Made by a program: the position numbers and the translations under genes
IMG/VR virus record: IMGVR_UViG_3300028591_000144
Source: a virus
Direction: 5' to 3' (one strand)
Length of the DNA stretch: 33,480 nucleotides
Shown: one piece after another, positions 11,884-11,906 of the stretch
Layout: each line of letters begins with the position of its first letter
How positions within the stretch are numbered: the first letter of the stretch is position 1
The notes under the pieces: generated by a model
What the model saw: only the letters and a program-made list of their open reading frames with translations
Told to the model about the DNA's origin: nothing
Database searches by the model: none

Positions 11884-11906
11884 AAAAAAAAAAAAAAAAA
11901 AAAAAA
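11884..11906 (+). repeat. A23 homopolymer in 5' UTR
   Basis: 23 consecutive A between -10 and SD. The paralogous unit at 15070-15110 has agaacaaaaaa instead. Confidence 0.8.

Follow-up and report, generated by a model that had tools for sequence, protein, structure and literature searches.

A pure run of 23 adenines (A23; positions 11884-11906, exact run bounds, + strand) occupies the predicted 5' leader of a small gene in the window, by which we mean the whole stretch of 33,480 nt analyzed here, and raises the question of whether such a homopolymer controls the expression of the gene or is the product of a mutational process acting on a tolerant stretch of DNA. By chance, about 5e-7 runs of 23 or more A would be expected in the window (A = 34.4%), and the only A runs longer than 10 that it contains are A23 and a second tract, A22 (8548-8569). 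The gene in question (11920-12078, + strand), hereafter the unit A gene, encodes a very acidic protein of 52 amino acids with 17 aspartate and glutamate residues and a single lysine or arginine. It is preceded by a sigma-70-type promoter (11838-11866, + strand; TTGACT-17-TATAAT, 11 of the 12 consensus positions matched) and, as read from the sequence, by a Shine-Dalgarno (SD) motif, AAGGAG (11908-11913, + strand), located 6 nt 5' of the ATG. Counted from the final base of the -10 hexamer, the first A of the tract lies at a distance of 18 nt, and the tract ends 1 nt ahead of the SD region, the immediate context being gagg, A23 and taaggagatcattATG, and the wider context TTGACTTCTGGTTGATTATGCGTTATAATGGGCTTGCCCGAAGAGG, A23 and TAAGGAGATCATTATG. 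Right after the gene, still inside unit A, there is a hydrophobic 16-codon open reading frame (ORF; MLTIIIFFILGSLFEA, 12094-12144, + strand) with a strong SD of its own; this SD and the start of the ORF are kept in the orthologous contigs L004 and L005.

A paralogous unit, unit B (15042-15285, + strand), consists of a promoter (15042-15070, TTGACA-17-TATAAT, matching the consensus at 12 of 12 positions), the leader GGGCTTGCCCGATGAGG, the spacer GAAAGAACAAAAAA, the motif TAAGGAG and a gene for a 56-amino-acid protein (15115-15285). In the preliminary description, the two genes were taken as paralogs with about 85% nucleotide identity and with matching promoters and SDs, of which only the former carries a poly(A) tract between the promoter and the SD, and this picture holds. 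The coding sequences are 85.5% identical over ungapped columns, their alignment containing one 12-nt indel, and the proteins are 80% identical; the blocks TATAATGGGCTTGCCCGA and TAAGGAGATCATTATGGA are the same in both units, as are the -10 hexamer together with the next 12 nt and the block from the SD to the ATG. The -10 hexamer and the SD of unit A are also the same in the orthologs. The run spans exactly 11884-11906 and the paralog is devoid of it; a short counterpart is indeed present there, although its sequence is GAAAGAACAAAAAA (14 nt), slightly longer than the AGAACAAAAAA reported earlier.

Neither of the two proteins matched any entry in Pfam, PHROGs, PADLOC or the PDB sequences, and an exact-protein look-up with the unit A protein and two of its neighbors found none of the three on record. 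For the unit A protein this is likely to be due to the fact that L018, the only contig of the strain, is cut in the tract, so that the gene is called partial. Homologs of the protein were found in cow-rumen metagenome assemblies only (ENA STEW18/19 and WILK20 series; PRJEB21624). In one relative, L016, the whole unit A cassette is missing, and the gene is thus dispensable. When positions 1-360 of L016 are set against window positions 11484-11844 and 12361-14240, the break falls in a repeat of about 40 nt (CAATTGTGCATAAGGTAAAATCCCTTATTCCCTCTTGACTT) that stands before both promoters; cassettes are thus gained or lost by recombination between promoter modules, as evidently happened in L016.

The location of A23 limits what its length can do. 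The tract is found outside the -35/-10 spacer and outside any ORF with a plausible start; because it is bracketed by the -10 hexamer and the SD, its length alters neither promoter spacing nor the reading frame, and therefore classical on/off phase variation does not apply. Promoter-spacer phase variation in particular was ruled out, the tract being downstream of the -10 hexamer. Judging by the -10 spacing, from which the start site is inferred, the transcript would enter A23 at about +11 or +12. The predicted leader folds weakly whether or not the tract is present, its stability not exceeding that of shuffled sequence (z-score +0.62); neither the tract nor the SD is paired in the minimum free energy or the centroid structure, the SD is open with or without the tract, and the only visible change in folding brought about by the tract is the loss of a small CCC/GGG pairing of the conserved block upstream of it. 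The earlier suggestion that the two copies might be expressed differently or stochastically is, according to these predictions, mechanistically weak.

The origin of the tract was traced by comparison with orthologous leaders. Orthologous contigs covering the locus are about 94-96% identical to the window, and in the five that contain unit A the site of A23 is occupied by GAGAAAA(C/T) followed by A8, or by A6 in one of them. Specifically, the leader reads GATGAGG, GAGAAAAC, A8 and TAAGGAG in L004, L005 and L007, has GAGAAAAT in place of GAGAAAAC in L019, and has A6 after GAGAAAAC in L010, compared with GAAGAGG, A23 and TAAGGAG in the window. The longest A run is 6 in the unit B leaders (seven contigs and the window's own copy), and the A runs are likewise short in the host copies of the leader block. 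Altogether, in the other 13 leaders of the gene family (five unit A orthologs, seven unit B orthologs and the unit B copy of the window itself, with at least 10 independent rumen assemblies represented), the longest A run is 6-8, and only the window has 23. Since the A runs of the orthologous leaders are short, the long tract is derived and confined to the window's strain, and the ancestral state, as reconstructed from these leaders, would be GAGAAAAC followed by A8.

The change, however, is not one of length alone. When the window is aligned globally to L007 (95% identity), it has 7 additional A at the tract, and within the tract all three interruptions present in L007 are now A (G>A, G>A and C>A); furthermore, upstream of the tract, T is replaced by A at position 11879, within GATGAGG, a motif otherwise unchanged in all 14 further instances of the block. 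Against a background divergence of about 5%, four changes to A within about 20 nt did not arise independently as point mutations, and they fit slipped-strand realignment across the interruptions. Over the approximately 5.9 kb aligned between the window and L007 there are 15 indels, the three largest of which (+7, -6 and +4) are all in non-coding A/T runs. The proposal of a recent expansion by slippage, made in the preliminary description from the paralog, is thus upheld by the A8 and A6 of the orthologs against A23 and by stepwise alleles at two other tracts (A10/A16/A22 and T9/T15/T20, described below). It has to be amended in that a purely additive expansion accounts for the 7 extra A and leaves out two G and one C in the tract and one upstream T that also became A; and the paralog, presented as a clean natural comparison, shows the expansion less well than the true orthologs do.

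The upstream substitution falls in a conserved sequence. The start-site/leader block of unit A (GGGCTTGCCCGAAGAGG, 11867-11883, + strand) reads GGGCTTGCCCGATGAGG in every other instance, and together with the -10 hexamer it corresponds to a 23-nt block, TATAATGGGCTTGCCCGATGAGG, located at 11861-11883 and 15065-15087 of the window, of which unit A has the sole mutated copy (GAAGAGG; T>A at 11879). The block TATAATGGGCTTGCCCGATGAGG is found exactly in rumen relatives, in three metagenome-assembled genomes (MAGs) of uncultured Ruminococcaceae, where it is 5' of a lipoprotein gene (sugar-binding-like), and in three IMG/VR phage contigs of 21-133 kb, where it is 5' of unrelated genes; the contig sets carrying it are L001-L003 and L024-L026. 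These exact matches argue that TATAATGGGCTTGCCCGATGAGG is a promoter and leader module common to host and phage, which would indicate the host. From its presence in MAGs and phage contigs and from the rumen-only homologs, the window can be taken as the early region of an uncultured rumen phage, the host of which is probably a member of the Ruminococcaceae. Megablast of window positions 11000-16000 against 50,697 phage records yielded no match, tblastn with the 189-amino-acid neighbor protein retrieved remote partial hits only, and no match to Rfam was obtained for the whole window at gathering thresholds. IMG/VR was scanned with the unit A gene, the window sequence itself and the class-1 leader, in each case with no match, and two scans of JGI metagenomes gave neither a match nor further alleles.

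The convincing ORFs of the window are all small, all on the + strand and all provided with strong AAGGAG-type SDs, and all leaders in the window have the same A-rich, unstructured style 5' of the SD and the start codon. The window is built of repeated regulatory modules, with ten promoter-like copies in positions 1-11,300 and dozens of sigma-70-type promoters in the rest. The ten copies (287-10743) are AT-rich promoter-like modules, AAAAAAAATATTGCAAAAAAAATTTTTTTGATATAAGTTGTAATTGTCCTC, spaced about 1.1 kb apart, with the extended -10 element TGATATAAG and a spacer of just 15 nt to TTGCAA; each is accompanied by a small hairpin on its 5' side and, on its 3' side, by a leader with GTCCTC/GAGGAC that are able to pair. 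A 31-nt intergenic element, AGGTAGACGGAACGCCTTAAAGACTCCGCAA, is present in twelve copies (1610-11295) between the stop codon and the next SD in multi-gene units; it has no match in Rfam and might serve for RNA processing or for protein binding. In the left part of the window, a G-rich conserved element, GTGCTGGGTAGGGCTGGGCAGCAAAAGCCGAG, is found directly 3' of each unit's terminator (160-190, 2042-2101, 3145-3204, 5166-5225, 6547-6606, 8324-8383, 9431-9490, 10539-10598 and 11276-11335). The unit preceding unit A is closed by a terminator-like hairpin (11716-11755, + strand) with a 12-bp stem and a GAGTTT tail, which belongs to a family of six unit separators (the others at 12275-12312, 12899-12936, 13383-13422, 14920-14957 and 16397-16438). 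Compensatory changes are observed in 7 of the 12 pairs of these hairpins, the CGC/GCG ends are conserved, the GAGTTT tail follows, and the loop takes the form GTCyCACGCCAA in four copies; they resemble terminators placed at unit boundaries and sharing a conserved loop. Other paralog pairs of the early region, with 71-80% nucleotide identity, are 17401-17685/28365-28649, 4613-4837/5898-6122 and 18860-19060/20107-20307; one early-region pair contains a Cys-rich zinc-ribbon-like domain and matches phrog_20898. A single tRNA-Ser gene (anticodon CGA, 26135-26215) is located amid the small early genes.

A23 is not the only long homopolymer of this lineage, and all long runs of the window are in non-coding DNA. 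The second tract, A22 (8548-8569, + strand), which the preliminary description does not mention, is in the leader of a gene for a 111-amino-acid protein (8614-8949) and begins 18 nt after the TGATATAAG element (8522-8530) of one of the ten promoter-like modules. Its alleles form a series of AAGAAAC followed by A10 in L007, AAGAAAC followed by A16 in L019 and the pure A22 of the window; in L023, which is 98% identical to the window, the contig starts inside this tract with 14 A left. Read on the minus strand, A22 provides a terminator-like hairpin, GTCCTCACCGCAGGAC (8590-8575), with its T tail. The third variable site is the tail of an intrinsic-terminator-like hairpin (10530-10538, + strand), the length of which is strain-dependent: T9 in the window and L019, T15 in L004 (1114-1128) and L007 (2203-2217), and T20 in L020. 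At the non-coding start of the window (19-54, + strand), T13 (19-31) is followed by G20 (35-54), both of them also unmentioned in the preliminary description; opposite these runs, L021 (57-100) has G8 and an interrupted C/T-rich stretch. The G20 run could form a G-quadruplex. L021 goes on with homologous sequence for 56 nt beyond the left end of the window, and since it reads through the window start, T13 and G20 are not simply a terminal artifact; an origin of G20 in a genome end at the window start was ruled out on the same ground. Runs of 7-9 at orthologous sites differ by at most 1 between strains, many of these matches coming from repeated promoter copies, with one exception at 16705, where the flank-anchored match is doubtful. 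A22 and A23 have two properties in common: the offset from the -10 hexamer to the first A is exactly 18 nt in each (from 8530 to 8548 and from 11866 to 11884), and at each site the ancestral A run was preceded by a motif of the form (G/A)AGAAA(A)C. Selection for long poly(A) leaders could account for the parallel; a mutational bias of the whole lineage acting on a common seed architecture could do so equally.

The explanation that we consider likely is that slippage during replication lengthened a tolerant A-rich spacer of the leader in a nearly neutral manner; A23 would not be a switch, and any effect on expression would be no more than quantitative. Under this scenario, slipped-strand mispairing during replication of the phage DNA would expand the interrupted A-rich spacer, and the grown run would then realign across the G and C interruptions, erasing them and leaving a pure and even more slippage-prone tract. 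The length would be weakly constrained because this part of the leader needs only to be unstructured and A-rich. The same slippage would act on the other non-coding homopolymers, in a second leader, in the tail of a terminator and at a G run, and runs within genes would be kept short by selection against frameshifts. Tract length would then be expected to be heterogeneous across the phage population. A/T runs of about 7 or more cause bacterial RNA polymerase to slip (PMC6260861), and on A23 the enzyme would be expected to produce transcripts with variable numbers of A; translation of the acidic protein or stability of the mRNA might shift, quantitatively at most and not in an on/off manner. 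Several observations sit less comfortably with near-neutral slippage: two leaders of one strain have reached near-equal pure lengths (22 and 23) at the same offset from the -10 hexamer, which could be due to selection; the loss of all interruptions and the substitution in an otherwise invariant block exceed what simple slippage predicts; and the breaks of L018 and L023 at the tracts may represent sequencing failure and not true heterogeneity.

The alternative that survives best, and that we regard as unlikely, is a selected expression rheostat, in which long pure poly(A) leaders are favored and their length tunes the translation or mRNA stability of early genes. Mechanistically, the tract would provide an unstructured standby or enhancer site, RNA polymerase slippage would make the leaders heterogeneous, and hypermutability would spread expression levels. 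Consistent with it, two independent leaders with two promoter classes converge on A22 and A23 at an equal -10 offset, and interruptions have been purged from both. It also has precedents, as A-rich sequence 5' of start codons promotes initiation (PMC7043885), unstructured 5' tails can serve as ribosome standby sites (PMC5934652), and expression-grading repeats are known, such as the poly-G tract of the porA promoter (PMC3639595). Nevertheless, little gain would be expected from a longer tract, given that the ancestral leaders already lacked structure and were rich in A and that the SD is both strong and open; similar tracts have expanded where there is no leader (the terminator T tail at 10530, the G run at 35-54), and short runs are kept in all other sampled strains. 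The dispensability of the gene in L016 also speaks against it, and the mutated conserved block adjacent to the tract looks more like relaxed constraint. The broader proposition that long pure homopolymers about 12 nt into early transcripts are selected hypermutable tuning elements in these rumen Ruminococcaceae phages, with replication slippage varying leader length among virions and RNA polymerase slippage varying it among transcripts, appears improbable to us.

Less probable still, and in our opinion very unlikely, is that the tract or its length is an artifact of library amplification, read errors or the behavior of assemblers at low-complexity sequence. Such an origin is brought to mind by the fact that T13, G20, A22 and A23 all occur in one assembly and that two independent assemblies (L018 and L023) break in the tracts, as if these were hard to sequence through; moreover, the lengths of 22, 23 and so on are assembled lengths. 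However, a chimeric join at low-complexity sequence is excluded by the collinearity of both A23 flanks with the orthologs, and L018, a Logan contig assembled independently from the raw reads of run SRR8436538 (for which no literature was found), matches window positions 11892-12929 with 0 mismatches in 1038 nt. The window is correct at all other homopolymers of the kilobase matched by L018. The 5' end of this contig is inside the tract and reads A15 followed by TAAGGAG, so that reads of the same strain hold at least 15 A. None of the 31-mers at the break is repeated elsewhere in the window, and an end at this point fits either length heterogeneity or poor read-through. In addition, intermediate lengths (A16, T15 and T20) are found in contigs from other samples and other assemblers. 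Taken together, the collinear flanks and the independent contig indicate that A23 is real, 23 being the assembled length and at least 15 A being present in L018. In practice, assemblies of this phage break or miscount at the tracts at 19-54, 8548, 10530 and 11884, and their lengths are not to be trusted to the base.

A coding or terminator role can hardly be credited: a ribosome-stalling poly-lysine upstream ORF, readable at 11871-11909 as TTG CCC GAA GAG GAA (AAA)x7 TAA, was rejected for want of a usable start codon or SD (the TTG is at or before the predicted transcript start, and no separate ORF of this kind exists in the orthologs), and an antisense terminator tail, which the minus-strand hairpin and T run of the sister tract A22 (8590-8575) might suggest, was rejected because no G+C-rich hairpin adjoins T23 (the terminator scan lists none on the minus strand at 11907-11950) and every predicted gene in the window is on the + strand.

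Long A runs and slippage in leaders are familiar from other systems. Poxvirus post-replicative mRNAs have 5' poly(A) leaders that are non-templated and arise when the polymerase slips on TAAAT, and pyrBI, codBA and pyrG are known for reiterative transcription at their start sites. Like the poxvirus leaders, A23 places a long A run before the start codon of a viral mRNA, but it is DNA-encoded and operates in a bacterial translation system. Unlike the runs used in reiterative transcription, A23 lies about 11-12 nt into the transcript and not at +1 to about +6, nor is it in an ORF, and no nucleotide-sensing logic is apparent. As in transcriptional slippage (PMC6260861), an A run far above the slip length is located in DNA that is transcribed, given the 11/12 promoter upstream and the inferred start site, and heterogeneous leader transcripts are therefore expected; since A23 precedes the ORF, such slippage cannot change the frame. 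The resemblance to A-rich enhancers and standby sites (PMC7043885, PMC5934652) is one of placement only, an unstructured A-rich stretch directly 5' of the SD; those enhancers are short and of mixed A-rich composition, whereas A23 is pure and templated and its gene already has a strong accessible SD. A templated pure A run of this kind has not been described as a translational enhancer. With the poly-G and poly-C contingency loci of Campylobacter and Neisseria (PMC3639595, PMC5320596, PMC6321876), among which the porA promoter tract grades expression, A23 shares a length that varies by slippage among close strains (A6/A8/A23 here, A10/A16/A22 and T9/T15/T20 at the other sites) and a promoter-proximal position from which it could in principle modulate expression. 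It differs in being poly(A), in a phage and far longer than its seed, and in lying in neither an ORF, the -35/-10 spacer nor a regulator site, with no switching mechanism evident. A23 is thus another case of a known mutational feature, behaving like a hypermutable simple-sequence repeat without having the position of a contingency locus.

As near-neutral slippage, A23 offers a clean and well-polarized natural case of homopolymer birth, with intermediate alleles in other samples, and on its own it matters little. If length did tune early expression, the phage population would start host takeover with varied doses of small acidic early proteins, and the equal offset of A22 and A23 from two unrelated promoter types would be a footprint of selection. 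An effect of tract length on early expression would represent a rare instance of repeat-driven expression diversity in a phage and not in its host, although nothing found here requires it. The surrounding modular early region, with a promoter and leader block exactly common to probable host genes, may reward further attention more than the tract itself.
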